A DNA stretch of 64,000 bases from a virus. Below are positions 18,488 through 42,443 of this stretch, one piece after another; within the stretch, counting starts at the first letter, position 1, and the number at the start of each line of letters is the position of its first letter. Position numbers and translations under genes: made by a program. Under the pieces are notes generated by a model. That model ran no database searches, was not told where the DNA came from, and saw only the letters and a list, made by a program, of their open reading frames with translations. The stretch lies in IMG/VR virus record IMGVR_UViG_3300008050_000030. One strand, written 5' to 3'.

Positions 18488-18525
18488 GGGGCCTCCTGGT
18501 TGGGATCTACTCTACTTATCCCGCG
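18488..18525 (-). promoter_or_regulatory. start-associated cassette
   Basis: GGGATAAGTAGAGTAGATCCCAACCAGGAGGCCCCATG. Confidence 0.55.
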
Positions 18526-18531
18526 GATCGA

Positions 18532-19611
18532 CTACGAGCTGATCTGGAAGAGGTCAGCCTGCTCGAAGGCGACGGACAGCTTCAGCAGCCCCGAACGGAC
18601 GTCCCGGGCCATGTCCTCTCCGATGTCCACGACGTACTTGCGGATGGCCCGAGAGACCTGCCGCGCCGTGCCCTCCGGCAGCCGCACCTCCGGGACCCGG
18701 CCGGACTCCGCGTGCCGGGCCAGCAGGGCGCTCAGGCGGTCCTCCAGCTCACGGAGTTCGACCCCCATCGGGGCCGTCTCCTGGATGACGTTCTCTCCTC
18801 GCGGGAGCTGTCGCCGGCGGATGCGGGTGCCGTTCTCGCGCTCCACATCGCCCCCGCCCCCGAGGCCGAGGCCCGAAGCGGTGCGCCGCGTCTTCTTCAT
18901 CTCGTTCATCTGGGCCTTGATGGCCGGGCGCCCGCCCTGCGTGGCGACGGCGATGGGGCGCCCTTGCTCCCGGGCCTGGCGCTTGGCCTCCTCCTTCATC
19001 TCCCAGGCCTCCTCGTAGGTCAGCGGGGTGTTGCCCTTGGAGAAGGCTCGGACGCTTCGCTCGAGCTCGTCGTGCACCGACAAGGCGCCCAGCGTGTCGC
19101 GCTGGGCGTAGGAGCGCAGGGAGTCTGCCGACCGAGGGCGGTCGCGGTCATCTGCAGCAAAGGCCGCGCCCACGCCGAGGAAGGCGTACCGGGCAGCGTC
19201 GGACATGTCACCGCTGAAGGGCCCCTGGGCGGGCATGTCCCGGCTCTTGCTGAACTTCAGCTCCCGCGTCGGCGAGGAGTCCTGGATGGCGAGGATCATG
19301 TCCGCGTCGAAGGGGTGGCTGGCGAAGCCGGCCGGCTTCGCCATCTCGCGCGCCGCCAGGAAGCGGTTGCGGGACTCCGCGGCCCGCACGTCTGCGGCCT
19401 GCAGCTCGTGCTCGTGGAAGATCTCCCGGTGGCTGCGGTCGGCCTGGACCCACCAGAAGCCCGGGAGGTCCGTGACCTCCGAGACGACCTTGCCCACGAT
19501 GGGCCCGGTACGCAGAGCTCCTCCCGTGGGGGAGCGGTTGCCGATCTTGAACTCGTAGTAGCTGCCCTTGGTGGGCGAGGTGGCGACGATGTCGCCGATG
19601 TGGGGGATCAT
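18532..19611 (-). CDS. hypothetical protein (359 aa)
   Basis: CGGAGACACCATG context; high GC3. Confidence 0.75.
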   Translation of the reverse strand: MIPHIGDIVATSPTKGSYYEFKIGNRSPTGGALRTGPIVGKVVSEVTDLPGFWWVQADRSHREIFHEHELQAADVRAAESRNRFLAAREMAKPAGFASHPFDADMILAIQDSSPTRELKFSKSRDMPAQGPFSGDMSDAARYAFLGVGAAFAADDRDRPRSADSLRSYAQRDTLGALSVHDELERSVRAFSKGNTPLTYEEAWEMKEEAKRQAREQGRPIAVATQGGRPAIKAQMNEMKKTRRTASGLGLGGGGDVERENGTRIRRRQLPRGENVIQETAPMGVELRELEDRLSALLARHAESGRVPEVRLPEGTARQVSRAIRKYVVDIGEDMARDVRSGLLKLSVAFEQADLFQISS

Positions 19612-19844
19612 GGTGTCTCCGAATCGCCGCGGTAGTTGGCGGCTTCACGTAGGGAGCCCTCCCAGGTCAGGAGGGCGAAGGGTCCGGCGCCCAGCAGGAA
19701 CTGCGGGCCGTCGTACCAGTCTTCTTGGAGGCCCCAGACCCACTCGGATCGGGGCAGGAGCAGGTGAAGGGCGAAGCCTCGCCAGCCGGCGCAGATCAGG
19801 CCGGCGTTCTTCTCGAGGCCGAAGGACAGGAGCCAGGCGCTCAT
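19608..19844 (-). CDS. hypothetical Trp-rich small protein
   Basis: ATGA overlaps on both sides. Confidence 0.5.
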   Translation of the reverse strand: MSAWLLSFGLEKNAGLICAGWRGFALHLLLPRSEWVWGLQEDWYDGPQFLLGAGPFALLTWEGSLREAANYRGDSETP

Positions 19845-20979
19845 GGGACTCTCGTGGCGGGGATGTAGGGGAGGGACTCGTCGTTGGGGCTCTGGTGCGC
19901 GGCGACCTCGGTCACCTTGATGGCGGTCCACTCGTCGTGGTGCCTCAGGTGCTTGCCGCGCTCCACCAAGAGCTCCTTCAGCTCGTCGTCGTAGTCATCG
20001 CCGGGCATGTAGATCTTGTAGCCTCGCGCCGTGTACTTCTCGTGGTCCTCTCGGGTGATCGGCAGCTTGCCGCGCTTGAAGTACACCCGCTCGTGGCGGG
20101 CGACGTCGAAGCGGTGGGAGTAGTGGCGCTTCACACGCCCCCCGCCCATCAGGTTCGGCATGCGCTCCTTGATCTCGGTCGTCTGCATCTTGACGATGTA
20201 GTAGGGCGGCGGGATGGGCCGCTTGATGCCCAGCTGCTTGCCGATCTTCTTCACCGCCATCCGGTAGGACAGGCGACGATCCCCCTCTTCGATGAAGGAG
20301 CGGTACTGCGTGAGCATCTCGGCGATGCAGGTCAAGATCCAGGGGTGCAGTGTCCTCGGCGTCGGCCACATCATTCGAGTGCGGCTGAAGACGGTGGCGT
20401 AGACCAAGCGGCGGGTGCCGTCGGCCTGCTGCACTCGGTAGATCACCCAGTAGTTGTCGTTGGTCGTGAGCACGGCGCCGAGGAGCTCGGCGCCCACGAG
20501 GCCGATCTGCTCGACCATCTCCCCGGGGAAGTAGACCGACATCTGCTCCGGCTTGAAGCGCATTCCCTGCCCGAAGGCGAGGAAGCACACGTCGAAGGGG
20601 AGCGCCTCGGCCGGCGGCAGAGCATGCCCCGCTTCCGTGGTCATCTCCGCGATCTTGGGCCCCTCCGCCAGGTCCTCGGGGGTGGGCGTCCTGGTGAGGT
20701 CGAGAGGCTTCCAGTCGAAGCCGCACAACTCCTCGGTGATCCATACGTCCGTGCCGTGGTGCAGCGTGATGTAGGTCTGCGGCTGGATGAGGAAGAGCTT
20801 GGCCTCCCGGAGCAGACGCCACAGCCGGCCCGCCTCGTCGTCCGTCTCCTGCTTCCAGCCTCGCCCAGCCCAGAGATCCACCGTCGCAGACCCCTTCTCC
20901 CCTCTCGCCAGCTGCAGCGCCAAGCGCTTGGTCTCCATGAACGTCTCGATGGCCTCGGCGAGGCCCTTCTCCAGCGCCA
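19841..20979 (-). CDS. hypothetical protein (379 aa)
   Basis: Start chosen at ATG 20979 with GGAGGT SD; the upstream part of the longer ORF would translate the operator palindrome. Confidence 0.7.
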
Positions 20980-20995
20980 TGCGTACCTCCGCAAC

Positions 20996-21017
20996 TCTCG
21001 CAAGTATACCTGCGAGA
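20996..21017. promoter_or_regulatory. 22-bp near-perfect palindrome (operator candidate)
   Basis: TCTCGCA-A-GTATAC-C-TGCGAGA; two symmetric mismatches. Confidence 0.5.
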
Positions 21018-21087
21018 TAAAGGTAACGATCTCCGCGTCCCCACAACTGCCAGTTGGCAGCGGGGGACGGAGAAGGTCGGGTTTTCG

Positions 21088-21392
21088 TTACTTCTGGACG
21101 GCCTGCACCTTCGCGCGGGCCAGCACCAGCGCGAAGTCCTCCTTGGGGTGGCGCTCCCAGAGCCACTCGGGCCACTGGTCGAGCCAGGGGAGGACGCGGT
21201 CGGCGAGGTCGGTGGCGGCGCGGGCTTCACCGCGCTCCCGGACGTCGTTCAGGATGTCGATGTCCTCCTGCGTGGGCAGGGGGTACTGGGCGTAGCGGAG
21301 CGCCATGCCCTTGAACCGGGCGGTGGCCTCCTCCTTGCCGTTGCGGAGGGTGAGAGCGAGCAGCAGGCAGCGGTAGTACAGCATCTTCAGCA
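21088..21392 (-). CDS. hypothetical Trp-rich protein (101 aa)
   Basis: GGGATAAGGGAGATGAAGGAGATCCACATG context. Confidence 0.6.
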
Positions 21393-21413
21393 TGTGGATC
21401 TCCTTCATCTCCC

Positions 21414-21686
21414 TTATCCCTCCGGCGGGGGCTCCTCGTTCGTCTCTTCGTTGCTGCGGCGGGCCACGTACAGGTTCACCGGCCACTCGGGGTGGGCGTC
21501 GGGGGTGTAGGCGGCGTAGGCGCTGTAGCCCTCGCCCTCCCCAGTCTCCACGATCTCGATCAGGGGGTAGCCCTTCACGACGAGGATGTACCCCTCGGCC
21601 CGGAAGATGGTGCCGGGCGGTGGGACGACGGGGTAGTTGAAGACGTGCGTGTGGCCGTCTTGGTCTTTGGCGTAGATGGTGAGCAT
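21414..21686 (-). CDS. hypothetical protein (90 aa)
   Basis: Very high GC3; start ATG after CTGATCTGGACTCCCGC. Confidence 0.6.
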   Translation of the reverse strand: MLTIYAKDQDGHTHVFNYPVVPPPGTIFRAEGYILVVKGYPLIEIVETGEGEGYSAYAAYTPDAHPEWPVNLYVARRSNEETNEEPPPEG

Positions 21687-22081: not shown

Positions 22082-22167
22082 CTCCTCGGATCACCTGCCT
22101 TATGCCCTGCAGATCGCTAAGGTTGCGACGCCCGAAGGCGTCGCAGGTGGAAGGTGGTGCCGAGGCT

Positions 22168-22446
22168 CTACGCCTCGGCGGTGGGGGCCGTGCCCCAGCC
22201 CGTCATCATGACGGGACGGTCGGGGCGCGGCATCGCCTTCATCGTCCGGGCCCGCAGCGACGCCGTCCGGGCGTCGAGCTCGGCGGCCTTTTCGTTGTGG
22301 AACCGCACCAGCGGTTCCACGGCCAGGGGCCCGAGCCGCTTGCGCTGCTCGACGATCCGTGCGTTGAAGCGGGCCAGCTTCTCGGTCTCTCGGAGGATGT
22401 CCTCCGCTTCGGCTTCGAGGGCTGCCAGGTCGGGGGGAAGTGCCAT
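22168..22446 (-). CDS. small coiled-coil protein
   Basis: Full cassette GGGATAAGAGAAGTAGACCACCAACCCTGGAGAAAGATCATG. Confidence 0.6.
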   Translation of the reverse strand: MALPPDLAALEAEAEDILRETEKLARFNARIVEQRKRLGPLAVEPLVRFHNEKAAELDARTASLRARTMKAMPRPDRPVMMTGWGTAPTAEA

Positions 22447-22486
22447 GATCTTTCTCCAGGGTTGGTGGTCTACTTCTCTTATCCCT
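22447..22486 (-). promoter_or_regulatory. start-associated cassette
   Basis: GGGATAAGAGAAGTAGACCACCAACCCTGGAGAAAGATCATG. Confidence 0.6.
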
Positions 22487-22515
22487 CGACCAGATCTACG
22501 AGTTGCGCCCCGCAC

Positions 22516-26496: not shown

Positions 26497-26719
26497 TGAA
26501 GATCTCCAGGTCGGTCCACGACTGCCCGAGGCAGTGGTGCATGGTGGCGATGAAGGAGGTGCCGAGGCCCAGCTGGGCCTCCAGCCACTCCTGCGAGACG
26601 GCGTTGTCGTTGAAGCGGCAGGGGAATCCGCGAGAAGCGCAGTGCCCCAAGACGTGGGCAGGGAGTTCGACGAGCCGGCGCTGGCGCGTCTCGAAGATCT
26701 TGCCGGGTGCGCGAGGCAT
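26465..26719 (-). CDS. hypothetical Cys/His small protein
   Basis: Cassette GGGATAAGGGGCGTAGACCACCAACCCGGAGAACCAATG. Confidence 0.5.
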   Translation of the reverse strand: MPRAPGKIFETRQRRLVELPAHVLGHCASRGFPCRFNDNAVSQEWLEAQLGLGTSFIATMHHCLGQSWTDLEIFNAPHPPLPQR

Positions 26720-26995
26720 TGGTTCTCCGGGTTGGTGGTCTACGCCCCTTATCCCTCCCTCCAACTCTCAGTTGACGCTAAGGAGGGGCGCCACTCCCTC
26801 GACTGTCCCGGCGCACTCGCAACGGGACCAACACGAACTTCATGATCTTTGTCTCCAGGGGTGCGGTTGCCTTATCCCGCTGCGCACGCATGAAGGTGCA
26901 GGGGAGCGACCCTGGTGAAGGATCCCACGGGGAGGGTGTAGGGAGAGAGAGAGAGGGAGGGAGAGCAATGCTCGGGAGCCGGGATCTTGTCGAAC

Positions 26996-27011: not shown

Positions 27012-27124
27012 CATTCGGCAGAGGCCGTGCGTCCTCCCAGAGAAACAGCAACACCTAGTTGCTCAACAGGGAACTGCGCAAGCGGTCCGAAATCTACGAC
27101 AACCGAGTGTCCTACGCTAAGCGA

Positions 27125-27205: not shown

Positions 27206-27405
27206 TAGTTCGAGGTGTCGGGCTCCTCGGCCTTGGGGGCCTCGGCCTCCTCGGCCTTGGAGAACTTGCCCTTGATCCAGGTGACGGCCTTGCCACCGGT
27301 GCGGGACCAGATCGGCATGGCGGCGACGCCGCTCAGGAAGGTGAGGGCCAGCACGAGGGCGAGCTTGACGAGGGACTGGGCGGTGAAGCGGGCGATGGTC
27401 TTCAT
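27205..27405 (-). CDS. small single-pass membrane protein (MKTIA-family paralog)
   Basis: MKTIARFTAQSLVKLALVLALTF; full promoter cassette upstream. Confidence 0.55.
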   Translation of the reverse strand: MKTIARFTAQSLVKLALVLALTFLSGVAAMPIWSRTGGKAVTWIKGKFSKAEEAEAPKAEEPDTSN

Positions 27406-27588
27406 GATCTTGACTCCAGGGGTTGGTAGGAACGCGTCGCAGAGAGCACTTGCTTCCTGGACACTTCTCTTATCCCCCCGTAGAGGGCTGATTTCACGAG
27501 ATCCGTATATCTCTGCGGCTATCTCAATTCCTGGGCGAGGGGCCTTCATGAGGTAACTGTGTAGTGGCCGCCGATTCAGGGCCCGGAT

Positions 27589-28135: not shown

Positions 28136-28497
28136 CAGCCCAAGGTCACGGTGTCGAGGACCTCGTACACCCAGGCCTCGTGATCCCGGGCCTCACCGCG
28201 CCAGACCTGCTCGTGGCGGAGCATGATCAGCGTGGCCAGGTGGCCAGGCTTGTCGAAGTCACCGAGACGCTCCAGGAGCTTCTCCTTCATCTCCTTCTGG
28301 TACGCGTGGTAGGTCTCGCGGTCGACGCCGTCCGAGAGGTCGATCAGCCAGATCGGTCGGCCGACGAGGTAGCCCTGCAGGCTCATGAGGTAGTTCCGCA
28401 GCTCCATGCGGCGACGCATGGCCCGTCCGAAGAGGCCGACGATTCCGAAGAGGCCGACGATGACGAAGGTGATGAGGAGGCGGGCGAGGGTCTTCAT
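28135..28497 (-). CDS. small membrane protein (MKT-family paralog)
   Basis: MKTLARLLITFVIVGLFGIVGLFG; full cassette upstream. Confidence 0.65.
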   Translation of the reverse strand: MKTLARLLITFVIVGLFGIVGLFGRAMRRRMELRNYLMSLQGYLVGRPIWLIDLSDGVDRETYHAYQKEMKEKLLERLGDFDKPGHLATLIMLRHEQVWRGEARDHEAWVYEVLDTVTLG

Positions 28498-28560
28498 AGT
28501 GAGCTCCAGGGGTGGTTGGTCTACTTCTCTTATCCCCCAGTGACAACTCCCAGTTGTCGC
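28498..28560 (-). promoter_or_regulatory. promoter/5'-UTR cassette
   Basis: Minus sense: GACAACTGGGAGTTGTC ... GGGGGATAAGAGAAGTAGACCAACCACCCCTGGAGCTCACTATG. Confidence 0.6.
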
Positions 28561-28753
28561 CCAACGCTAAGGGAGGGGGATTGGCGATCCCCTTAGCCCA
28601 GATCCCGAAGGAGCTGGTCCCATGAGAGGAAACCTCACCTGCGGCCGGGGCGTCCGGCCGGCGGGGATCGAACCCGCTCCTGTTCATGCCCAGCCCCCTG
28701 CTGCGTGTACGTGGAGGTGCCGGCCTCACCGCAGCAGGGGGTTTGTCGATCAC

Positions 28754-29194
28754 TCAGACGACCCGGAGGCCTCGGGGGTTGCCGGACTCGTCGAGGCCGA
28801 GGGCCGCGCGCTGCTCGGGACCGAGCATGCCGGCCTCCATGAAGGCGTCACGCATCTGCTCTCGGGGCAGCACACCCTCCCAGCGCCACTCGACGGTGCC
28901 GTTGGGGGCGATGTGGCGCTGGGTGTGCGCCACCTCTCCTGGCCGGGCGAGGGCGTGGCCCACGTGCTCCGCCGGCAGGCGGAAGAGCGCGTACCCGACG
29001 TCGAGCTCGACGGACCCGTCGGGGTAGACCGCGGCGACGCGGGCCTCGGTGGGCTGGTCGACGGTCATCGTCTCCGGCTTGGCGGCGGGCTTGGTGGGCT
29101 TGGCGGCGGGCTTGCGCCATCCCAGCAGGGTGACGATGGCTCCGAGGATGAAGCCGAGGATCACGGGGGCGAACAGACGGATGAAGGCCTTCAT
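28754..29194 (-). CDS. membrane protein with Lys/Pro-rich linker (MK-family paralog)
   Basis: MKAFIRLFAPVILGFILGAIV; AKPTKPAAKP linker. Confidence 0.65.
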   Translation of the reverse strand: MKAFIRLFAPVILGFILGAIVTLLGWRKPAAKPTKPAAKPETMTVDQPTEARVAAVYPDGSVELDVGYALFRLPAEHVGHALARPGEVAHTQRHIAPNGTVEWRWEGVLPREQMRDAFMEAGMLGPEQRAALGLDESGNPRGLRVV

Positions 29195-29852: not shown

Positions 29853-29965
29853 GATCTTCTCCGGGGAAGGGGTTCACACCTCTTATCCCCCCATACCAAC
29901 TGGAAGTTGTCAGCTAAGCAGGAGCGAGGGGGGACCCTCGCTGCGACTGCTTTCGGCCCGCCCCC

Positions 29966-32061: not shown

Positions 32062-32097
32062 CACTCTTCTTATCCCCTCAACAACTCCCAGTTGACG

Positions 32098-32298
32098 CTA
32101 AGCGCAGAGCCCCTCGAAGAGGGGGTGCGCAGTCGTCTCAGGACAGATCGGAGAGCACGAGGAGGACCAGCCAGCGCCGGCCCCCTCACGCCAGATGACG
32201 TAGTCCTTGCCTTCGTGGCGGTGGGTCCCGCATCGGCGGGCGGTGCGGGGCGGCTTGTCCACGATCACCGCCACCCCCAGCCGGGTCTTGACCCTCAT
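32098..32298 (-). CDS. small Cys/His protein (66 aa)
   Basis: ATGA-coupled; stop TAG lies inside the CTTAGC element. Confidence 0.5.
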   Translation of the reverse strand: MRVKTRLGVAVIVDKPPRTARRCGTHRHEGKDYVIWREGAGAGWSSSCSPICPETTAHPLFEGLCA

Positions 32299-32766
32299 CC
32301 CGCGAAGTGGGTGAAGCGCGCTTCGCCCGTCTTCTCTTGGGGAGCGAGCGCGCCTGCGATGATGCGCTGAACCTGCCGCGCCATCAGGCGGAACCGGAAG
32401 TAGTCGATCCACTCGTGCTCGCGCTGGTGGTCCCGCAGCTCGAGCAGGGGCAGGGCCGCCTGGCAGAACTTGACCGCCAGCTCGGGGTTGACCACGGCGA
32501 CGGCCGCCACCATGTCCACCACGGCCTGTCCGTGGACGACGTGGATGCGCTCCCACCACGCGATGTTCTCCTCCCGCGAGGCGCCCGGGACGTCGGCGAA
32601 GACGTCCCGGTTGTCCTCCGTGATCTGATCGACGGCGGGTCGGGCGTCGGGGCAGGCGTCCAGCAGGACGTCGAAGAAGTCCAGCAGGAAGCCGTGGGTG
32701 CAGGAGTGGTCGTTGGCCAGCAACAGGCGCTGGAACTTCTCGGTCGGGTTCTCTTCGTTGAGCATG
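32295..32766 (-). CDS. hypothetical protein (157 aa)
   Basis: Cassette GGGATAAGGAGATCACAACCCTGGAGGAGCACATG. Confidence 0.65.
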
Positions 32767-32873
32767 TGCTCCTCCAGGGTTGTGATCTCCTTATCCCGCC
32801 GGACCCGCATCGGTTGCTAAGAGCGAGCGTCCACCGGACCCAGGAACCACGAGGGTTCCTGGGTCCGAGGACT

Positions 32874-33582
32874 TCAGCTCGCTGCCCGGGCGGAGAACCG
32901 CAGGACCCCCGGCTTGGCGACGTCCAGGAGTCCCTCGGCCCGCCACCGGAAGACGGTGGCCCTCTCGTTGAGCATCGTCGCCGTGCGGGTCGCGGCGTAC
33001 TGCTGCGCGGCGTACTCTTCTGCGGGACGGAGGAGAGCCGCCCATGCCTGCTCGTCGTACGGCAGCTCGAGCTCGAACTTCGCGTCCCCTGGGTCCGAGT
33101 CCGGGGGCGAGCCGGCGGCTTCCCACTCCGCGTAGAGGGCCTCGTCCTCGGCCACTACTTTCTGCAGCCTCTCCTGGAGGTCGGTGGTGTCCCAGTAGGC
33201 CGAGACGGCCTTGCGCGCCTCCTCGCGCTCGACCTTCTCCTTGGCTGCTGCGCGCTCTCGCCCCAGCGCGGCCTCGTGCCGCTCCAGGGCGCCGGCCGTC
33301 ATGGCCTTGATGTCTTGGAAGGCCGCAGCGGTGGCCTTGGCCACGATGGCGCGGTGGTGTCCCCGCAGGGCCTTGGCCAGGTCCGCGGAGATGGCCTTCT
33401 CTGAGAAGGTGGGGCCGTCGTCCACCTTCAGGGTGAGGCCGTCGCCGTCGTCCACGTAGAGGAGGAGCTTCAGGCAGCTCCCCTCGAACTTGCACTCGAG
33501 GTCGCAGAGGTCGACCTTCCACTCTCCGGGGAGGGCGTCGGCCGCGTCGAAGAGGGCGTCGAGGATGGTCTTCTTGCTCATG
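32874..33582 (-). CDS. hypothetical protein (236 aa)
   Basis: Cassette with CCCCCGGAGATCATCATG. Confidence 0.65.
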
Positions 33583-33647
33583 ATGATCTCCGGGGGTTGT
33601 GGTCTGCTTCTCTTATCCCTCCGCGGCAACCCCCAGTTGACGCTAAG

Positions 33648-33680
33648 AGAGGAGGGGCAGCCGTAGCCGCCCCTCCTCTC
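33648..33680. terminator. GC-rich hairpin
   Basis: GAGGAGGGGC-AGCCGTAG-CCGCCCCTCCTC between stop and next cassette. Confidence 0.55.
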
Positions 33681-33697
33681 CCTCGGCCGCCGCCGTC

Positions 33698-34225
33698 CTA
33701 CATGTCGTCGAAGCCGGCCGCCGCCGGCTCGTCGTCGGACACCCACTGGGTGCCCTCGGCGGCCTCGTCGGCGGGGACCGTGAAGGAGTCGGCCACCGCC
33801 TCGCGGCGGCGGCGCTCCTCGGCCAGGAAGGACGACGCCTGCGCCGCCTCGGCCTGCAGACCCGCCATGCGGGCGCGCATCTCCTCCATCTCCATCGCGA
33901 TGGCCTCCTGGCCGTTGCCGATGACCTCGAGCGCCGGGCGCTCGAGGCCGAAGATGGCGCTGACGGTGTCGTGGGCGGCGACGGCGGGGATCCCCGCCTC
34001 CGTCATCGTCGCGAAGGCCTTCGCGAAGGCCGTCGCCTTCGCCGTCGCCACCTCGACGCTCTGGAGGCGCACCTGGTGCACCCCCATCACGATGCCGGTG
34101 ATGGCGGACGTACCGAGCGTCACGAGGCTGGTGGCGTGTGCGAGTTCGTCTTCGAGGCGGGCCTTGCGCTCCTCGCGCTCGAGCTCCATCTCCTTGCGGC
34201 GGGCAGCGATCTGGTCCTTGGTCAT
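33698..34225 (-). CDS. hypothetical Ala/Glu-rich coiled-coil protein
   Basis: CCTGGAGACTGAGACCATG context. Confidence 0.65.
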   Translation of the reverse strand: MTKDQIAARRKEMELEREERKARLEDELAHATSLVTLGTSAITGIVMGVHQVRLQSVEVATAKATAFAKAFATMTEAGIPAVAAHDTVSAIFGLERPALEVIGNGQEAIAMEMEEMRARMAGLQAEAAQASSFLAEERRRREAVADSFTVPADEAAEGTQWVSDDEPAAAGFDDM

Positions 34226-34314
34226 GGTCTCAGTCTCCAGGTCGAGGGGAAGTTGAAGTCCTCGACACCTCTCTTATCCCTCCAACAACCGCCAGTTGCA
34301 CTCGGATCTAAAAG

Positions 34315-34385
34315 TTGAAAAACAAGCTCTCGGCGATGCCCAGGCCGAACGATCTCACCGAGAGCAGTCCTGATTGAGTGCGTTC
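34315..34385 (-). ncRNA. candidate small RNA with its own cassette promoter and a U-tract terminator
   Basis: GGGGGATAAGGAGAACG promoter copy at 34381-34396; 8-bp stem GCTCTCGG/CCGAGAGC (34326-34365) followed by TTGTTTTTCAACTTTTAG; no ORF. Confidence 0.35.
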
Positions 34386-34424
34386 TCCTTATCCCCCGAA
34401 ATCGGGGAGTTGCCGATCGGGGAG

Positions 34425-34455
34425 GAGGGACCTAGATCCCTCCTCCCCTTCTCCG
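34425..34455. terminator. GC-rich hairpin downstream of the kinase gene
   Basis: GGGGAGGAGGGA-CCTAGATCC-CTCCTCCCC. Confidence 0.55.
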
Positions 34456-35142: not shown

Positions 35143-35778
35143 TCAGAGGACCGAGACGCCGCACAGCTCCCAGAGAGGCTGCGTGGTGATGTCGAGGACA
35201 TCGACGAGGCGGGCCAGCGCAGTGGCGCTGAGCTCGCGGACGTTCCAGTTCAGGGACACCTGGGTCTCCATCTCTCCGTGCCGCGGCCCGTTCACCCAGG
35301 ACTCCTCGGGGATGGGCCCGGGGCCGCGGTGGGTCGAGGAGCGGTCCAGGTGCGGGCGCTCGTCCATGTTGGTGAGTCGGCAGCCCTCGGACGCGGCCAG
35401 CTCCCGAATCTGCTTCCAGGTCTCGGCCTCGGCATCGAAGGCGATGAACTCCGTGGACAGGTCGATCATCTCCTTCTTCTCGGTCCACAGCCCGTAGACG
35501 CGCCAGCGCGACCGGCGGGCGACGACGTCCTGGAGCGGGCGGACGCGGGCCAGGAAGGCGCGCTCGCCGTCGGAGAGGTGCAGGAACTCCTCGGTCTGGT
35601 AGTGGAGGCGGATGGCCTCTCGCCACGCCGGAGAGTCGAGGCCGGCAGGTTGCTCGGGCGGCCACGTCAGGTTGGCGGCCTTGGCCAAGTCGGGCAGGTG
35701 GCAGGTGGAGACGTCGCGGAGGTACTCACCGTGGCGGTGAATCTCCCCGATGCTGTTGATGTGGAGACCGATCTGCAT
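35143..35778 (-). CDS. hypothetical protein (211 aa)
   Basis: High GC3; preceded by a 200-bp lower-GC leader carrying the TATACCTGCGAGAT box. Confidence 0.7.
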   Translation of the reverse strand: MQIGLHINSIGEIHRHGEYLRDVSTCHLPDLAKAANLTWPPEQPAGLDSPAWREAIRLHYQTEEFLHLSDGERAFLARVRPLQDVVARRSRWRVYGLWTEKKEMIDLSTEFIAFDAEAETWKQIRELAASEGCRLTNMDERPHLDRSSTHRGPGPIPEESWVNGPRHGEMETQVSLNWNVRELSATALARLVDVLDITTQPLWELCGVSVL

Positions 35779-35983
35779 TCATGTCCCTCGGTAAGCATTG
35801 TGGAGGTCGGGCCGACGATCGCATCGGAAAGTCTGTTGTGTCTTGTGCACGTCCGTCCTCTAGCAACCTCCTTATACCTGCGAGATCACAGCACTTTCAG
35901 GGCTAAAGATGCGGTCCTTTCGGTCCTAGATCGAGGTCACGACTCCTCTTGAAGTGATCACCTGTGGTTTTGATCTACTCTAT

Positions 35984-36166
35984 TTATGCCTCCAGGCGCC
36001 CGCGGATTTCACTCCGCAGGCGCCCATCAGCACGTTCTCTCAGCCGCCCCGTCAGGACGTAGATGACCTCGCCGATCGGGCGGGCGACGAGGTTGTGGGC
36101 GGTCCACTGCAGCCGGCGGGGAAGCCGGTCGAGCAGCGGGGCGAAGAAGCCAGTCTTCTGTTCCAT
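35984..36166 (-). CDS. hypothetical small protein
   Basis: CCTGGAGATCTGATG context; its stop lies inside a motif copy GGCATAAATAGAGTAGATC. Confidence 0.45.
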   Translation of the reverse strand: MEQKTGFFAPLLDRLPRRLQWTAHNLVARPIGEVIYVLTGRLRERADGRLRSEIRGRLEA

Positions 36167-36224
36167 CAGATCTCCAGGTAGGTAGGTGGTCGTCCTACTT
36201 ATCCAGGAAATCCGCCCACTTTCA

Positions 36225-36875
36225 TCAGCCGAGGGTGAGCCACTTCTCCTCGTACGCGGCGATGGCCTTGCACTCCTCCTCGATCTTGCCGAGGAGTTCG
36301 TCCGCCCCCACCGAGAGCCCCTCGAGCCCCTCGAGCATGTCCCGGTACCGCCGGTTGCCGCCGGCGAGGTTCCGCACGAAGCGGTGCGAGGACACCGGCG
36401 GCTTCGGCGCGTGCGACCCGATGATGTTGATGAGGGCGTGCGTCGCCCCCATCTCGGTGAAGGCGTCCCGCGCCGCCTGGGTGACTTGGCGGTCGGCGAG
36501 GAACGCGTCCGCCGTGTACACCACCGCCCCCACGAAGGCGGGGGTCAGGTCGGCGCCCTTCTTCTGGAACCAGGCGCGGTCTCCGACGAGGACCACCTCG
36601 CCCCGGTGGATCCGCGGCTTGAACATCTCCGGCTGCGGCACGGCGGGCCGCTCGATGGCGCCCGACACGACCATGTCGTACGCCCAGGCGGGCAGGGGCA
36701 CCATCTCCTGGCCGTTCTCCGGGAACTTGAACTCTGCGGCGGCCTCCGCCACGACATCCTGGATTTCGTGGTGGCGCCCGTCCGCGCAGAGGAACGAGGG
36801 GTCCATGACGGTGCCGACGGCGCCGCCGCCGATCTGGTCGAGGGCGAGGGGGTGGGTGAAGAGATTCATGGTCAC
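36225..36875 (-). CDS. hypothetical protein (216 aa)
   Basis: CGGAGACGTGACCATG context; high GC3. Confidence 0.7.
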   Translation of the reverse strand: MTMNLFTHPLALDQIGGGAVGTVMDPSFLCADGRHHEIQDVVAEAAAEFKFPENGQEMVPLPAWAYDMVVSGAIERPAVPQPEMFKPRIHRGEVVLVGDRAWFQKKGADLTPAFVGAVVYTADAFLADRQVTQAARDAFTEMGATHALINIIGSHAPKPPVSSHRFVRNLAGGNRRYRDMLEGLEGLSVGADELLGKIEEECKAIAAYEEKWLTLG

Positions 36876-36937
36876 GTCTCCGTGCCGGGGGAAGTTAGGG
36901 TCCCAGCACTCCTCTTATCCCTCCGTTGATCCCTAAA

Positions 36938-36979
36938 CGACGAAGGGCGCCCCACCAGTCGGTGGGGCGCCCTTCGTCG
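36938..36979. terminator. long GC hairpin
   Basis: CGACGAAGGGCGCCCCACC-AGTC-GGTGGGGCGCCCTTCGTCG. Confidence 0.6.
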
Positions 36980-38059: not shown

Positions 38060-38358
38060 CACGCCTCCTTCTTCGGTGCGGGCTTGGGGTTGGCGGCCAG
38101 GTGCGCCTGGTGGCGCAGGTGCGCGTCCACGCCCTGGGCGTGCTCCTCCGCCTCCGTCTTGTTGTAGAAGATCTCCCCCGTCAGGGGGTCCTCGTAGGAG
38201 GCCGCCATCTGGGTCTGGCGGCGGAGGGAGGCACCCAGGCTGTCGGTCCAGGAGGCCCGCTTCTCGCGGGCCTCCCGGCTGAAGAAGACCTTGTAGATGA
38301 TGCCGGCGCAGGCGGAGTAGACGGCCACGATGAGCAGCCGGAGAGCGAGTTTCTTCAT
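38059..38358 (-). CDS. small membrane protein (MKK-family paralog)
   Basis: MKKLALRLLIVAVYSACAG; cassette GGGATAAGAGGAGTACACCCCCTACCTGGAGATCTCATG. Confidence 0.6.
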   Translation of the reverse strand: MKKLALRLLIVAVYSACAGIIYKVFFSREAREKRASWTDSLGASLRRQTQMAASYEDPLTGEIFYNKTEAEEHAQGVDAHLRHQAHLAANPKPAPKKEA

Positions 38359-38396
38359 GAGATCTCCAGGTAGGGGGTGTACTCCTCTTATCCCTG
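38359..38396 (-). promoter_or_regulatory. start-associated cassette
   Basis: GGGATAAGAGGAGTACACCCCCTACCTGGAGATCTCATG. Confidence 0.6.
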
Positions 38397-38399
38397 ATC

Positions 38400-38879
38400 T
38401 CAGGGGCAGTTCTCGTTCACGAACTCACGAGCTTCATCGGGCCGCAACTCGGCCCCGAAGTAGTCCTCCCGGGCGAAGGTCGTCTCCACGAGATCGTGTC
38501 CGTGGCGCCCCCAGCTGTGGGATCGCCAGACCCCGTCGTCGAGGCAGTATCCGGTGATGAGGACGAGCCTCTCGTCGAGAAGCCACTCGTGGGAGATGTT
38601 GGAGTGGCAGCGTCCGGCCTCCCCCTCCCGGAGCTGGATCTTCTCCGGGCGGTAGGGCTGGCCGCGCTCGAGGAGGATCTTCAGATGCTCCTCGATGCCG
38701 TTGACGCAGATCTCTTCCCCTCCCTCAGCGAGGAGCACCTCCCGCAGTCTTGCCAGCGCCGGCTGCACGCGTAGGGCGCTCTCGTACCTCGATCTCAGGA
38801 AGGTCAGTTGTCGTGGGGTCATCAGGCAGTCGTTGCTGAAGGAGTCGTTGAGCGCGCTTCGGCTCGGTTCCGAAGGCAC
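38400..38879 (-). CDS. hypothetical protein (GTG 38879 or ATG about 38822)
   Basis: Strong GC3; +1 frame relative to the 3' tail of the sigma factor ORF. Confidence 0.55.
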   Translation of the reverse strand: MPSEPSRSALNDSFSNDCLMTPRQLTFLRSRYESALRVQPALARLREVLLAEGGEEICVNGIEEHLKILLERGQPYRPEKIQLREGEAGRCHSNISHEWLLDERLVLITGYCLDDGVWRSHSWGRHGHDLVETTFAREDYFGAELRPDEAREFVNENCP

Positions 38880-39816
38880 CGCGCACTGCGCCGGCGGAGA
38901 CGCCGGGAGGGAGCACGGTCTCGGTCAAGATCTCGTAGGACTCCGCCATCCCGGCCAGAGAGCCTTCCAGCTCTCGGACACGGGCGCGCAGAGCCGCCAC
39001 GGTGTACAGGTCGTCCTCGGTCATTCCCTCCGCCATCTCGGCCATCTTCTTCATGGCCCGCAGCTCAAGTTGTCGTACACGTTCGCGAGTCAGGCCCATG
39101 TCGGTCCCGACCATCTCCAGGGAGTCGCCTTCCTTCACGAGCGAGGGGTGGCCGCCAGGAAGCATCCTTCGCCGAAGGATGATGTACCGCTCTCTCGCCG
39201 GAAGAGCCCCCAGGAGCATGCGGACGACCAGTTCTCGTCGAGAGGCTCGCCACTGGATGTCGTAGGCGTCCTCGGGGGTGTGTCGGTCGATGAACAGCTG
39301 GTGAGGAGGGCGGTCCTCGTCCCCCAGATCTTCTCGCTGCTCCCACCGCAGAACGGCCTGGAGCCGGATGAGGTCCTCCACGGGGCGGCCCACATCCTTG
39401 GACAGGCTCTCCATGAACTTGTCGTCTCCCAGGGTCTCCGAGACGGAGTTCCCGGTCTTCATCATGTGCCGGGTGATGCGAACCAAGGCCGCTTGTGCCC
39501 AGGAGGAGCGAGTGGCCTTGAACTGGTCCTTTTCGAGGCGGCGGTAGCGCTGGAGAAACGCCTTGATCCAGTGGTAGCAGTAGGTGGACAGGCGGGCCTT
39601 CTCGGGGTCGTACTTCAGCACGGCTCGGTGGAACCCCATGGCGACCTCCTGGAAGGCGTCATCCGGGTCCAGACCCTTGCCGTGCGTGTGCACCATCTTC
39701 CAGAACAACTGCACGTACGAGCGCGTGAGCGTGTTCATGGCGTTCGAGTCCCCCGCCTGTGCAGCGCGAGCAAGCCGGTCCTGCTCCTCTGCCGGGAAGG
39801 GAGGTAAGGGGGTCAT
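38725..39816 (-). CDS. RNA polymerase sigma factor, sigma-70 family
   Basis: Region 2 (STYCYHWIKAFLQRY) and region 4 (GLTRERVRQLELRAMKKMAE); GCTGGAGGTGCCGATG context; coding GC3 fades after about 38880. Confidence 0.8.
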   Translation of the reverse strand: MTPLPPFPAEEQDRLARAAQAGDSNAMNTLTRSYVQLFWKMVHTHGKGLDPDDAFQEVAMGFHRAVLKYDPEKARLSTYCYHWIKAFLQRYRRLEKDQFKATRSSWAQAALVRITRHMMKTGNSVSETLGDDKFMESLSKDVGRPVEDLIRLQAVLRWEQREDLGDEDRPPHQLFIDRHTPEDAYDIQWRASRRELVVRMLLGALPARERYIILRRRMLPGGHPSLVKEGDSLEMVGTDMGLTRERVRQLELRAMKKMAEMAEGMTEDDLYTVAALRARVRELEGSLAGMAESYEILTETVLPPGVSAGAVRGAFGTEPKRAQRLLQQRLPDDPTTTDLPEIEVRERPTRAAGAGKTAGGAPR

Positions 39817-39830
39817 CGGCACCTCCAGCG

Positions 39831-39856
39831 GTGCCCGGCACGAAGGCCGGGCACCG
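39831..39856. terminator. perfect 10-bp-stem hairpin
   Basis: GGTGCCCGGC-ACGAAG-GCCGGGCACC between the HicA/STAS-like and sigma genes. Confidence 0.6.
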
Positions 39857-39867
39857 CGGTATCTGGC

Positions 39868-40756
39868 TCAGGACCGCTCGACCACGATGGTCGGCAGGCC
39901 CTCGGTGGTCCGCTCCTCCAGCAGCAGCTGGCCGCCGCGGGCGAAGGTGAGGCCGGACAGGTTCTGGAGGCGGCACAACCGCTCCAGCGCCCAGCCGATG
40001 GTCTCCAGGTTGGACAAGTCGACGACGATGTCGCCACGGTAGTCGAAGCCGATCCCCTCGGAGTCCGCCCGCATCTCTTCGCGCCAGGGCTTCGCCGTCT
40101 CCTCGACCTTGTCGGCCGGGCGGAGCTTGACCGGCGCCTTCTTCGGGGCCTTCTTGGCCGGCTCCTTGGTCGGCTCCGCGCTCACCCGCTCCACGACGCG
40201 CCCGAGGCGGTCGAAGCGGAACGGGGCCGTCTCCGGCGTCGTGAGCAGCGTGCCCAGTCCGCCGTTCTGGACCATCTTCGTCTCCATCGCGGTGAGGGTG
40301 AGGTGCTGCGCCGTCTTGCCGACGCTGGGGTCGAGCGCGGTCTTCCCCTTCGCCGCCGCGACGGCGTTGCGCAGCACGGAGCAGGTCGGGGAGCTGATGC
40401 CCTTCCCGTGCTCCTTCTTGACGGCCGACTGCAAGGCCGACTGCCCCGTCGCGGGGTTCTCGGCGACGACGTTGATGGCGGTGAAGCGCCGGCGAGCGGA
40501 CTCGCGCTGCTTGTCGGGCAGCTCGGCCCAGAGGTGGGTGGTCGTGGTCATGGTCTCTTCTTCCAGTTGTTTTCGCAGGGCGTTGTAGGCGCGCATGAGG
40601 CGGTTGGAGCTGTGCTTCCGCAGATAGCGCTTCTCCACCTTCAGGGACCGTCCGTCTGGCGATTTCCAGAGTTCGGACTGTCCTCGATTGCCCACACGCG
40701 ACCAGCCGTTGCGGGTCAGGAACTGGAGAATCTCGGTGGTCATGGGTGTCTTCATG
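39868..40756 (-). CDS. protein with HicA/YcfA-like N-terminal domain and STAS-like C-terminus
   Basis: GWSRVGNRGQSELWKSPDGRSLKV resembles the HicA core; C-terminal VVDLSNLETIG...LTFARGG; lysine-rich linker. Confidence 0.6.
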
Positions 40757-40869
40757 CTCGAGCCTCCAGGGGTAACAATGCCCTTATCCCGCGCAGATCC
40801 GCGCATTGCTAAGCGAGGGCCCACCCCACGGTGGGGTAGTCGCCGTGCGGCGGGCCCTGCTTCGGATCC

Positions 40870-41160
40870 TCAGCCGCCGGCGATGCGCCGGCGGACTCGG
40901 ATCCTCGTCCCCACCTGGAGAGGGGACGTTTCCTGGGGCGCCTCGGGAGGCGCCTGCACCTTCTTGGGCTTCGGCGGAGGTGCCGCCATCGCCCGCTGCC
41001 GGTGCATCTCGCGGGCGAGGGCCCGCTTCATCTTGATCTTCGCTCGTGCTCGGCGGCGCTTCATCTTGCGGGAGGGCTTGCGTCCTCCGCTACCGCTGCG
41101 CGTGAGCTTCTTCTGCGTTCCAGGTCGGGGGTGACCCCCGGTGTGGCGGTGGTGATCCAC
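40870..41160 (-). CDS. highly basic small protein
   Basis: KMKRRRARAKIKMKRALAREMHRQR; high GC3; weak RBS. Confidence 0.5.
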   Translation of the reverse strand: MDHHRHTGGHPRPGTQKKLTRSGSGGRKPSRKMKRRRARAKIKMKRALAREMHRQRAMAAPPPKPKKVQAPPEAPQETSPLQVGTRIRVRRRIAGG

Positions 41161-41181
41161 GTTCGTCTTTCGTGTGTGGGG

Positions 41182-41469
41182 CTACAGCAATCGCTGCCAC
41201 AGGGGCTTCTTGCGCTCTTCGATGCGGGCGAGGATCTCCTCTTCCGTCACCCCGGTCTCCTCGCGGAGCTGCGGGTGGTGGAGGAGGACGAGTTCCTCGG
41301 GCAGAAACCGCCCCATCGTCCCGTCGTCGAGCTGGTAGTCCACTCCCTCCTTCTCGAGCCGTGCCAGGTGGCTTGCGAAGGCGCCCGTGTGAGCGGCGAG
41401 GAAGGGGACCGTGAAGGGGAACATGGAGGCCGCGCCGGCCAACAGTCCCCAGATCAGTGCGTACAACAT
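41182..41469 (-). CDS. small membrane protein (95 aa)
   Basis: MLYALIWGLLAGAASMFPFTVPFLAA; AAGGGA SD. Confidence 0.55.
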   Translation of the reverse strand: MLYALIWGLLAGAASMFPFTVPFLAAHTGAFASHLARLEKEGVDYQLDDGTMGRFLPEELVLLHHPQLREETGVTEEEILARIEERKKPLWQRLL

Positions 41470-41536
41470 CGAACCGTCCCTTCAGGCGTGCGACGCCCCC
41501 CAGAATCGGGGGACGCCGCATTCCCTGGAGAAAGGA

Positions 41537-42370
41537 CTACTCCGCCTCGTCGGCGGGCTTGTCCTTGCGCCCCCGGTACCAGCGGGAGCCGGCCTTGACC
41601 GTTTCCGTGGTGACCGAGAGCCCCGCGCCGACCGTGACCACCACGGCGCGAGAGTTGGGCAGCCGGGAGATCTTCCCGGCCACGAGCTTGTAGAGGAGTC
41701 CGAAGGCCACGGCCTTCGCGACGGTGTTGACGGGGTCGAAGGCCGCTCGGCCGCTGATGCGGCTGTAGTCCAGGGCCACCTGGCCCCACGGCGTCGTGGC
41801 GCGCTTCGGGGCGGCCTCCTCGCGGGCCACCTTCGCGGCCCGCTCGATGGCCGAGGCCATGTCCGCCGTCATGGCCTCGCGGATGACGGCCTCGAGGCCC
41901 TTGGCCATGGCCTCCACCTCGTGGTCCTCGCTCACCTCCATCGAGAGGAGGTACTCGCGGACCACGCCCCCGAGCGCCTCGGGGCTGATGGCCGAGGAGA
42001 GGTCGTCCTTGGTGGGGACCTTGCCGTCGGCGACCATCTGGTTGAACTTGGAGACCTCGGCCTCCAGCTTCTTCCAGGTCTTCTGGCCGAGGATCGACTC
42101 GATGCGGGCGTCGACGGCGGGGCCGGCGGCCTCGAGGGCGGGGCCGGCGAGCGCCTTGGCCTCGTGCTTGAGCACGATGGCGCCGAGCTCGACGGCGAGG
42201 GCCTCGGAGACCTCCGGGCTGACCGCGTCGCAGTTGCCGACGGCGGCATCGAGCAGGAGCGCCATGACGACCTTCTGGTCGTCGGGGTTGAGCTCGTTGA
42301 GGGGGACGCTGACCACGTCCCCTCCTTCGGGGAGGATCACCTCGGTGGGGGCGGAACTGGAATCGGTCAC
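41537..42370 (-). CDS. Ala/Glu-rich hypothetical protein (277 aa)
   Basis: GTG start; cassette GGGGATAAGGCGACTACAACCCCAGGCACACGTGCCCCAACGGAGATACATCTAGTG. Confidence 0.7.
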   Translation of the reverse strand: MTDSSSAPTEVILPEGGDVVSVPLNELNPDDQKVVMALLLDAAVGNCDAVSPEVSEALAVELGAIVLKHEAKALAGPALEAAGPAVDARIESILGQKTWKKLEAEVSKFNQMVADGKVPTKDDLSSAISPEALGGVVREYLLSMEVSEDHEVEAMAKGLEAVIREAMTADMASAIERAAKVAREEAAPKRATTPWGQVALDYSRISGRAAFDPVNTVAKAVAFGLLYKLVAGKISRLPNSRAVVVTVGAGLSVTTETVKAGSRWYRGRKDKPADEAE

Positions 42371-42443
42371 TAGATGTATCTCCGTTGGGGCACGTGTGCC
42401 TGGGGTTGTAGTCGCCTTATCCCCTTCTTCTGGGCAGTTTTCA

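Follow-up and report, generated by a model that had tools for sequence, protein, structure and literature searches.

The stretch of viral DNA described here (IMG/VR virus record IMGVR_UViG_3300008050_000030; all 64,000 nucleotides of it are referred to as the window) carries a short motif, GGGATAAG, which recurs on a single strand ahead of small genes and small RNAs. We consider it probable that GGGATAAG serves as the extended −10 element in a single class of sigma-70-type promoters, which are built into reusable cassettes. Such cassettes would give about 21 small orphan genes a strong transcription and translation start of their own and would likewise launch two tRNA-like or small RNAs, all within one leftward block.

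The hexamer GATAAG was found 22 times on the minus strand of the window and not once on the plus strand. Twenty-one of these copies are GGGATAAG, which is likewise restricted to the minus strand (21 against 0); a G precedes the hexamer in 22 of 22 copies and GG in 21 of 22. The probability that 22 copies fall on one strand only by chance is about 5 × 10⁻⁷, GATAAG is the most strand-asymmetric among 60 hexamers with the same base composition, and GGGATAAG ranks second in frequency among the minus-strand 8-mers of a DNA with 66% G+C. With up to one mismatch allowed, GGGATAAGAG gave 14 matches against 2.6 expected, and 14 or more were reached in 0 of 100 shuffles. The region between 18.5 and 42.4 kb, where all genes lie on the minus strand, holds 21 of the GATAAG copies; by public gene calls the copies are intergenic or placed on a stop codon. 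GATAAG is absent from the 20 kb flanking the window. The repeat had been noticed before in a sequence-only reading of the same DNA, and each of the 21 coordinates listed there corresponds to a minus-strand GGATAAG copy; the list was not complete, as it overlooked the variant TGGATAAG at 36204.

Architecture of the cassette

The 21 copies of the block were aligned, the first G of GGATAAG being taken as index 0. A G stands at index −3, GGG-ATAAG is invariant from index −1 to 6, index 7–11 is a purine-rich stretch, and an A-C-C-rich sequence begins after index 13. Between them, all 21 copies have a pyrimidine at index 12 and a purine at index 13. Transcription is predicted to start at this purine, whose distance from GATAAG, 7 nt on the downstream side, is the normal one between a −10 hexamer and +1. 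GATAAG itself is the sole AT-rich patch of the cassette and is invariant both in the block (21/21) and in a related phage described below, phage B (19/19). Motif discovery upstream of the copies, a check that the sequence-only reading had proposed, was carried out by expectation-maximisation on 39 copies from the two phages and recovered a second box, (G/T)CAACT, with a minority form TGAAAn that is present in only about five copies in the window. The 3′ end of (G/T)CAACT lies 15–17 nt from GATAAG in 33 of the 39 copies. In about ten copies the −35-like box extends into a palindrome, CAACT-N3-(A/G)GTTG, centred near −28.

Downstream of the predicted +1 there is a leader with a median length of 24 nt (range 12–65). 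A GGAG core precedes ATG or GTG by 4–9 nt in 18 of the 21 window copies, and these same 18 comprise promoter, Shine–Dalgarno (SD) sequence and start codon. The common leader, AGACCACCAACCCCUGGAG, is essentially unstructured, and the longer ones form a hairpin whose stem starts at nucleotide 1. These measurements revise the earlier description, according to which a start codon follows at 25–50 nt, after a conserved leader and a GGAG 6–9 nt before the start. Placement near a start codon holds, the distance being in fact 26–70 nt, with a median of about 37, from the first G of GGATAAG; the separate GGAG is likewise present, at the wider spacing given above, and the full 24-nt leader is found only in about 4–6 copies, the remainder being degenerate.

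In the arrangement that we propose, an optional GC-rich hairpin with CTTAGC would end the transcription arriving from upstream. It would be followed by the −35-like (G/T)CAACT or, in a minority, TGAAAn, by a non-conserved spacer of 15–17 nt and by GGG-GATAAG, in which GATAAG would occupy −12 to −7, with A at −11, and the GGG run would act as the extended −10. A purine-rich discriminator of 6 nt, ending in a pyrimidine, would lead to the purine at +1, and the transcript would open with the unstructured C/A-rich leader of about 24 nt, AGACCACCAACCCC, presumably optimised for translation and followed by GGAG, 5–8 nt and ATG. The A at −11 and a spacer of variable sequence with a second box upstream of it agree with sigma-70-family geometry. 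The housekeeping consensus TTGACA / TATAAT is not found, as −12 and −7 are both G and the −35 box is GCAACT. A promoter of the T7-type single-subunit polymerase was also considered and rejected, the variable 15–17 nt spacing counting against it. The original suggestion that GATAAG is a −10-like element in a promoter and 5′-untranslated-region cassette is supported by the fixed spacing to the −35-like box, the pyrimidine/purine step, the conservation footprint in phage B and the 5′ ends of non-coding RNAs, which coincide with the predicted +1.

Conservation in a related phage

Phage B is represented by contig L019, found by scanning metagenomes with the promoter core, and by the overlapping contigs L033–L036, reached through a shared kinase-like protein. 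The scan gave 16 chance matches and a single true relative, L019, on which 14 GGGATAAG copies share one strand within 9 kb. From 46.8 to 27.2 kb of the window the two phages are syntenic, with proteins 34–75% identical, and 19 distinct GGGATAAG cassettes of the same architecture were found in phage B. Nine of these could be paired with orthologous cassettes of the window. The comparison with related genomes that had been called for therefore supports the assignment: GGGATAAG and the start purine are identical in 9/9 pairs and index 12 in 8/9, whereas the spacer positions are identical in 0–4 of 9. A footprint of this kind is what a promoter would be expected to leave.

Even cassettes that are not orthologous share 84–94% identity in their DNA, compared with 67–78% for coding DNA. 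Since they are near-identical repeats, the cassettes are probably also recombination points at which gene modules would be shuffled, as in the PeSL cassettes of T4-like phages, in which a promoter is combined with a stem-loop (see below). The relative positions of a motif-bounded small-RNA module and of the gene at 32874–33581 differ between the window and phage B, seven motif-led open reading frames (ORFs) of L019 have no homolog in the window, and many motif-led ORFs are unique to one of the two phages. The sequence-only reading had set a repeated mobile sequence against a regulatory site; we judge this to be a false choice, as the cassette looks like both.

Non-coding RNA products

Three copies in the window and two in phage B drive non-coding RNAs or a micro-ORF, namely a tRNA-like RNA, a terminated small RNA and a 21-codon ORF. 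The first is led by the cassette at 32075 (31991–32102, minus strand), which comprises CTTAGC, TCAACTGGGAGTTG, GGGATAAG at 32069–32076 and a predicted +1 at 32062; as previously noticed, the tRNA-like gene begins exactly 6 nt after GATAAG. The RNA (31991–32061/62, minus strand) scores 45.4 bits with the Rfam tRNA model, and ARAGORN assigns it a four-base anticodon in an abnormal anticodon loop of 8 nt, CGCGCAAA. Its counterpart in phage B (L019 4138–4205, plus strand) has a GCAA tetraloop in place of the anticodon loop and lies at the same offset from its motif, at L019 4124. Both exceed the Rfam tRNA threshold and both start at the predicted +1, so that neither would carry a 5′ leader when made. 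They could act as a decoy, a processing signal or a primer. The tRNA-like RNA of the window is followed directly by another cassette, 31968 (31933–31990, minus strand), with GCAACC, GGGATAAG at 31962–31969 and the GTG of a 41-aa ORF.

The small RNA is led by the cassette at 34394 (34317–34448, minus strand), which has a 13-bp hairpin at 34419–34448, GCAACT, GGGATAAG at 34388–34395 and +1 at 34381. It would extend from 34381 to about 34317 on the minus strand (about 65–70 nt) and contains no ORF; its 5′ part is single-stranded, and it ends in a hairpin and U-tract that form an intrinsic terminator (CTCTCGG...CCGAGAGCTTGTTTTT). Its ortholog in phage B (L019 about 2191–2258) shows compensatory changes in the stem and a fold z-score of −5.6. 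The micro-ORF belongs to the cassette at 26877 (26778–26899, minus strand), where GGGATAAG (26871–26878) is followed by an SD sequence and, from an ATG at 26843, by 21 codons ending in TTAGC.

Further structured elements were seen in the long intergenic stretches, where T-arm-like hairpins GGGTTCGAxxCCC occur at 30584, 30538 and 28674 of the window (minus strand) and at 5682 of L019. The segment 28753–28498 is 67% identical to L019 5666–5875, which suggests another conserved structured RNA. ARAGORN also predicted a tRNA-Pro (29953–30029) and a 95-nt tRNA-Thr (30563–30657), neither of which has Rfam support.

These products bear on the alternative that the motif acts in RNA, either as a start-associated or translation-enhancing sequence or as a processing site at which long transcripts are cut. 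The roughly constant short distance from the motif to SD and ATG speaks for it, as does a loose likeness of the core to that of the start-associated sequence (SAS) of cluster K mycobacteriophages, GGGATAGGAGCCC (PMC3203893), and the tRNA-like elements beside two copies could serve as processing punctuation. A purely translational role is nevertheless excluded, because several copies precede RNAs that have neither SD nor ATG. In addition, the motif stands 26–70 nt from the start codon, with a separate SD, compared with 3–7 nt for the SAS, and the 13-bp SAS consensus has 0 matches in the window at up to two mismatches. If transcription starts where predicted, GGGATAAG lies outside the RNA of its own cassette, and a −35 box at fixed spacing has no explanation at the RNA level. 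An action in RNA is accordingly very improbable, and the translation-control element offered as a second option in the sequence-only reading is not upheld.

Terminator-like module and points against the promoter assignment

Strong hairpins with stems of 13–19 bp are found upstream of several cassettes (36979–36938, 33682–33645, 32868–32834 and 34448–34419), each with CTTAGC 0–12 nt after it. The same pair of hairpin and CTTAGC closes gene blocks that have no promoter downstream (17804–17770, 57720–57695 and 27155–27124), and for this reason CTTAGC was assigned to a terminator-like module and not to the promoter. TTAGC had been considered as a −35 element and was rejected, because it stands at varying distances from GATAAG and is also seen after hairpins that no promoter follows. 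The terminator module is a feature of some cassettes only. CTTAGC is seen in the place of the U-tract, 0–12 nt after strong GC-rich hairpins, for example at 17765–17770, 18157–18162, 27116–27121, 33642–33647 and 57689–57694 on the minus strand; it occurs 18 times against 9 expected, 15 of them on the minus strand, and could signal termination or 3′-end processing.

Several points weigh against the reading of GGGATAAG as a promoter in a mobile cassette. Promoter activity and the start site are both deduced from sequence. With G at −7 and −12 and a −35 box unlike TTGACA, no known holoenzyme can be named, and eight invariant bases would also fit the site of a DNA-binding regulator. When all copies are pooled, the upstream hairpins are not significantly stronger than those at random positions in this GC-rich DNA (p = 0.28), and only 4 of the 21 block copies have, no more than 40 nt upstream, the end of a hairpin whose stem reaches 9 bp or more, with shorter stems at several others. 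The case for recombination at cassettes is circumstantial. Two deletions in phage B end inside ORFs and not at cassettes, leaving N-terminal stubs of about 24–26 codons (L033 about 6918–7000 and 9891–9962) of the sigma gene at 38725–39816 and of a 211-aa gene at 35143–35778. The comparison has one diverged relative only, copies from other samples being 99.96–100% identical, with no cassette insertions or deletions seen at the strain level.

Candidate readers of the motif

That eight bases are nearly invariant and that −12 and −7 are both G suggests, as the putative reader, a dedicated specificity factor or a host polymerase in modified form rather than an ordinary housekeeping sigma. Canonical sigma-70 promoters are not in excess in the block (2 sites against 1.2 expected). 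The only canonical site in the intergenic DNA of the window is TTGCCA-17-CATACT, a rightward promoter at the divergent junction (42457–42485, plus strand) that is conserved in phage B and whose −35 lies inside GGCAACT-N4-AGTTGCC. That the sole canonical promoter has been kept at this junction in both phages suggests that the ordinary sigma of the host would use ordinary promoters and that GGGATAAG would need something else.

The same observation counts against reading by the host housekeeping sigma, under which the cassettes would be early promoters comparable to PeSL and their consensus would reflect a host preference or an activator-assisted class. This alternative is unlikely, although several points favor it. 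The block is made of small orphan genes without Pfam matches, typical of early host-takeover regions, and in such regions the PeSL of T4-like phages carry host sigma-70 promoters (PMC2839356). The A at −11, the 15–17 nt spacer and the 6-nt discriminator fit sigma-70-family geometry, and phage B tolerates the loss of the phage sigma gene. On the other side, the G at −7 and −12 with a GCAACT −35 box is, to our knowledge, a poor match to any housekeeping consensus.

That phage sigma gene (38725–39816, minus strand) encodes an RpoH-like protein of 363 aa of the sigma-70 family. The gene is part of the motif-driven block, and all that precedes it is a 12-bp hairpin (39828–39857) and an SD sequence. 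The sequence-only reading had proposed this sigma as the reader. It would then replace the host sigma and activate the leftward block, its own gene included, in a positive loop. The gene product is a true sigma, with regions 2 and 4 above the Pfam cut-offs, and it resembles RpoH: the top NCBIfam matches are sigma-32 models (78.8 bits, far below the equivalog cut-off of 315), and it is 25% identical to E. coli RpoH, with HWIKA in region 2.4 and ERVRQLE..AMKK in region 4.2 in common. The residues that we take to correspond to Q437 and T440 of sigma-70, readers of the −12 T, are A and Q in the phage protein. The minority layout TGAAAn-N13-GGGGAT, with four identical bases before AT, also resembles the consensus of E. 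coli sigma-32, TTGAAA / CCCCATWT (PMC6687850).

The role as reader is weakened, however, by phage B, which keeps 19 GGGATAAG promoters, including every ortholog tested, and has lost about 900 bp of the sigma gene; the remnant comprises about 26 N-terminal codons, with ATG changed to TTG, and contigs from at least three samples share this junction. Nor does the gene have a promoter independent of the motif, lying as it does behind a hairpin downstream of the cassette at 40789, so that the sigma could not start its own expression. The −10 region, GGGGATAAG, is not CCCCATWT, its run being GGGG and not CCCC, and the main −35 box, GCAACT, is unlike TTGAAA. Region 4.2 of the protein presumably retains, in R-E-R-x-R-Q, the readers of a TTGACA-like −35. 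The sigma is also without close relatives: a search of IMG/VR with the protein found no relative, and the protein search retrieved only itself and cellular sigmas at 25–32% identity. A specific reading of the motif by this sigma is therefore distinctly unlikely. Its loss in a relative that keeps the promoters poses the question of what reads them; candidates that remain are another phage factor, a remodelled host polymerase or the host sigma itself. A second sigma-like gene lies at about 92.5 kb of the full record, some 9 kb beyond the window, with a weak Sigma70_r3 match, and is unconfirmed from its N-terminal 146 aa.

The hairpin at 39828–39857 (minus strand), GC-rich and with a stem of 12 bp, stands between the 295-aa gene and the start of the sigma gene. 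Its position is conserved in phage B, and it may attenuate read-through into the sigma gene.

The motif could instead be chiefly the site of a regulator, either a repressor stoperator or an activator box like that of T4 MotA, with the palindrome CAACTnnnAGTTG as a dimeric operator. Eight invariant, asymmetric intergenic bases in one orientation resemble stoperators (in part by contrast with PMC3203893), about ten copies carry CAACT-N3-(A/G)GTTG, and at the divergent region it coincides in part with the −35 of the rightward promoter. About half of the copies nonetheless lack the right half of the palindrome, while the left half keeps its promoter spacing, and an operator alone is insufficient to account for the constant distance of 7 nt that separates GATAAG from a pyrimidine/purine step and from RNA 5′ ends. 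Stoperators, moreover, occur throughout both genome arms, whereas the rightward blocks here have no copy of the motif, and neither a repressor nor an integrase was found among the genes of the 84 kb examined. A primarily regulatory site is thus quite improbable; binding of a regulator could nevertheless be compatible with a promoter.

A wider proposal, which we hold to be unlikely in its full form, is that the GGGATAAG sites define a promoter specificity not described before, belonging to a clade of high-GC huge marine phages, in which an unrecognised phage-encoded factor or a remodelled host polymerase, and none of the annotated sigmas, reads the motif. The cassettes would then launch leaderless tRNA-like decoys that need no RNase P and would form integron-like joints between orphan modules.

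Individual cassettes

The remaining cassettes of the block, all on the minus strand, are described here in the order in which the leftward transcription would meet them. The rightmost, 42422 (42368–42444), has AAAACT, GGGATAAG at 42416–42423, a predicted +1 at 42409 and a 39-nt leader before the GTG of a 277-aa gene; its ortholog in phage B lies at L033 4323. The cassette 40789 (40753–40811), the closest of the motif promoters that lie ahead of the sigma gene, is preceded by an imperfect long hairpin and CTTAGC; it combines GCAATG, GGGATAAG at 40783–40790, +1 at 40776 and a 21-nt leader with the ATG of a 295-aa gene. In 38393 (38356–38415) the box is AGAACT, GGGATAAG covers 38387–38394, and +1 at 38380 leads to the ATG of a 99-aa gene. 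The longest of the upstream stems, 19 bp and terminator-like (36938–36979), stands at the head of 36920 (36867–36979), where GGGATAAG at 36914–36921, +1 at 36907 and a 38-nt leader precede the ATG of a 214-aa gene. The variant TGGATAAG lies in 36204 (36164–36226), with TGAAAG as −35-like box and the ATG of a 60-aa gene.

Directly left of the small RNA, 34279 (34223–34301) has GCAACT, GGGATAAG at 34273–34280, +1 at 34266 and a 41-nt leader with a hairpin stem from nucleotide 1, before the ATG of a 175-aa gene. The next two are headed by strong hairpins: in 33618 (33579–33682) a 17-bp hairpin (33645–33682) runs into CTTAGC and is followed by TCAACT, GGGATAAG at 33612–33619, +1 at 33605 and the ATG of a 235-aa gene, and in 32796 (32763–32868) a 15-bp hairpin (32834–32868) and CTTAGC are followed by GCAACC, GGGATAAG at 32790–32797 and an ATG at 32765. 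Beyond the tRNA-like RNA, 30362 (30281–30384) shows a −35-like GAAAAA, GGGATAAG at 30356–30363, +1 at 30349 and a structured leader before a 105-aa gene, whose start is placed at 30283 by the public gene call.

CTTAGC opens three of the cassettes that follow: 29888 (29850–29918), with ACAACTTCCAGTTG, GGGATAAG at 29882–29889 and the ATG of a 198-aa gene; 28535 (28495–28571), with ACAACTGGGAGTTG, GGGATAAG at 28529–28536 and the ATG of a 120-aa gene; and 26754 (26717–26782), with TCAACTGAGAGTTG, GGGATAAG at 26748–26755 and the ATG of an 84-aa gene. Between them, 29232 (29192–29254) is near the consensus, reading GCAACTGGCAGTTG-N8-GGGATAAGAGGAGTAGACCACCAACCCCTGGAG-N6-ATG before a 146-aa gene, and 27475 (27403–27497) has a −35-like TGAAAT, GGGATAAG at 27469–27476 and a 57-nt leader with a 5′-terminal hairpin, followed by the ATG of a 66-aa gene. 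The best match to the weight matrix is 22484 (22444–22506), with GCAACT, GGGATAAGAGAAGTAGACCACCAACCCTGGAG and the ATG of a 92-aa gene. In 21419 (21391–21441), GGGATAAG at 21413–21420 overlaps the TAA of an upstream 54-aa ORF, no clear −35 box is seen, and a 13-nt leader ends at an ATG at 21393. The last, 18521 (18485–18543), has TCAGCT, GGGATAAGTAGAGTAGATC and the ATG of an 88-aa gene.

A weight-matrix scan added four weak variants, at 35989, 35877, 22105 and 7835. The first two are degenerate forms within 35864–36005 (minus strand), TGAAAT-N16-GCATAAATAGAGTAGATC at about 35989 and TGAAAG-N17-TATAAGGAGG at about 35877; the third, GGGCATAAGG at about 22105 (22090–22145, minus strand), follows a 9-bp hairpin and CTTAGC. 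The fourth is the sole plus-strand variant (7832–7870), GTGGGATGAGTAGAGTAC...CAGGAGG...ATG, upstream of the gene at 7868–8407; the sequence-only reading had counted it as a plus-strand copy, and it is a degenerate variant (GGGATGAGTAGAGTA / GGGATGAG) rather than a true one. Outside the block, the copy that had been listed at 63446 does contain the motif (GGGATAAG at 63449–63456, minus strand), but the conserved flanks are absent at 63455, with no conserved −35, leader or nearby start codon; it is probably non-functional and may be a chance match.

Genome context

The window corresponds to bases 19,896–83,895 of a 188,377-bp metagenome contig in ENA, near-identical copies of which are present in several other marine samples, and we take it to come from a very large marine phage, with a genome of 188 kb or more. 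Pfam matches among the approximately 55 small genes at 17.9–42.4 kb are limited to the sigma and one weak AAA_33. The window region also contains an M15 endolysin-type peptidase, a giant protein with a lysozyme domain and many orphan genes. Pfam scans of 20 proteins added little. Among phage and plasmid records, megablast found nothing that matched either 8 kb or 24 kb of the window. Of three motif patterns searched for in IMG/VR, two had 0 matches and the third gave seven single matches in low-GC contigs, which were judged to be chance; one of the two zero-match patterns also had 0 matches in a genome collection. Within a capped set of candidates, the 295-aa neighbour of the sigma matched itself alone.

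An 867-aa protein (60489–63092, minus strand) with the shoulder and repeat domains of the major vault protein (MVP) is 38% identical, over 82–96% of its length, to proteins of the uncultured phages of 462–735 kb in LR756500-3 (LR756500, LR756501, LR756503). LR756500 and LR756501 were rejected as comparison genomes: they share the MVP-like protein but have 24–32% G+C, and the motif is absent from them. One segment of such a 24% G+C huge phage (L014, LR756500.1 979–43363) has a repeat of its own, TAAATATAATAAC, with about 15 copies in 42 kb, which is probably that phage's own promoter motif.

Genes of repair or nucleic-acid type are found at 4784–6991 (plus), 58316–59797 (minus), 14395–15510 (plus) and 16800–17759 (plus), the set including a fusion of LigD phosphoesterase, ligase OB and KTSC domains, an ATP-dependent ligase-like protein, an RlaP nucleotidyltransferase and DUF932. 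The shorter spacer between ribosome-binding site and start that had been reported earlier, GGAGTAGCC, was found directly before start codons at 1733, 3158 and 25437 (minus strand) and also at 46335 (plus strand). It is a second, rarer conserved form of SD spacer, unrelated to the GGGATAAG cassettes.

Comparison with known systems

Repeated phage-specific promoters are well known, and the finding is unsurprising in kind. It provides a ready map of transcription units for a phage of at least 188 kb with mostly orphan genes, and a compact, portable promoter and leader part from a high-GC system. Of greater interest than the repeat may in the end be the promoter-fused tRNA-like RNAs without anticodon loops, the CTTAGC associated with terminator-like hairpins and the absence of the sigma gene from a relative.

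Among classes of phage-specific promoters, the T4 late promoter TATAAATA is read by gp55, and the middle and late promoters of SPO1 are read by gp28 and gp33/34. The likeness lies in a near-invariant box of eight bases in the −10 region that defines one gene class; RpoH-type promoters share a run of four identical bases before AT, and the phage encodes an RpoH-like sigma. The sequence found here is unlike all of these, a −35 box is present, unlike in T4 late promoters, and a relative that keeps the promoters does without the candidate phage sigma. The stoperators of cluster A mycobacteriophages are 13-bp asymmetric repressor sites, and like them the copies described here are many, short, conserved, asymmetric and intergenic, oriented with transcription. 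They differ in standing at fixed distances from a −35 box and from RNA 5′ ends, in their restriction to one block and in that no repressor or lysogeny genes were seen.

The SAS and extended SAS of cluster K mycobacteriophages (PMC3203893) resemble the motif as asymmetric repeats in one orientation, confined to non-structural genes and mostly found at ATG starts, with a core that begins GGGATA; an upstream inverted repeat accompanies about half of the copies. The SAS, however, is positioned 3–7 bp from the start and contains the SD, whereas here the SD is separate from a motif lying farther upstream; the inverted repeat here is of 5+5 bp compared with 17+17 bp, and copies also precede non-coding RNAs. 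With neither the consensus nor this position found, membership of the cluster K SAS was rejected.

The closest known design is, by analogy, the terminator–promoter cassette of the PeSL type. PeSL of T4-like phages combine a promoter, a GGGG..CCCC stem-loop, an SD and an ATG in regions rich in orphan genes, where they serve expression, insulation and the shuffling of modules (PMC2839356, PMC4122927). Here too, promoter, SD and start codon are joined in a composite unit of about 60–110 bp, which in some copies includes a GC-rich stem-loop. The unit recurs many times, always in the same orientation, among small orphan genes of a large phage, and the modules bounded by cassettes vary in order and content between relatives. 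The setting, a hyperplastic region of orphan genes, is that of PeSL, and the strong host sigma-70 early promoter is replaced by a non-canonical consensus, GCAACT / GGGATAAG as opposed to TTGACA / TATAAT. The stem-loop here, where present, always stands upstream of the −35 and is followed by CTTAGC, some cassettes drive tRNA-like or small RNAs, and the phage is a huge one with 66% G+C and no detected similarity to T4. The principle of repeated terminator–promoter cassettes that express and shuffle orphan genes would thus extend well beyond T4-like phages, and what is described here is a new promoter consensus packaged in PeSL-like cassettes of an uncultured huge phage.

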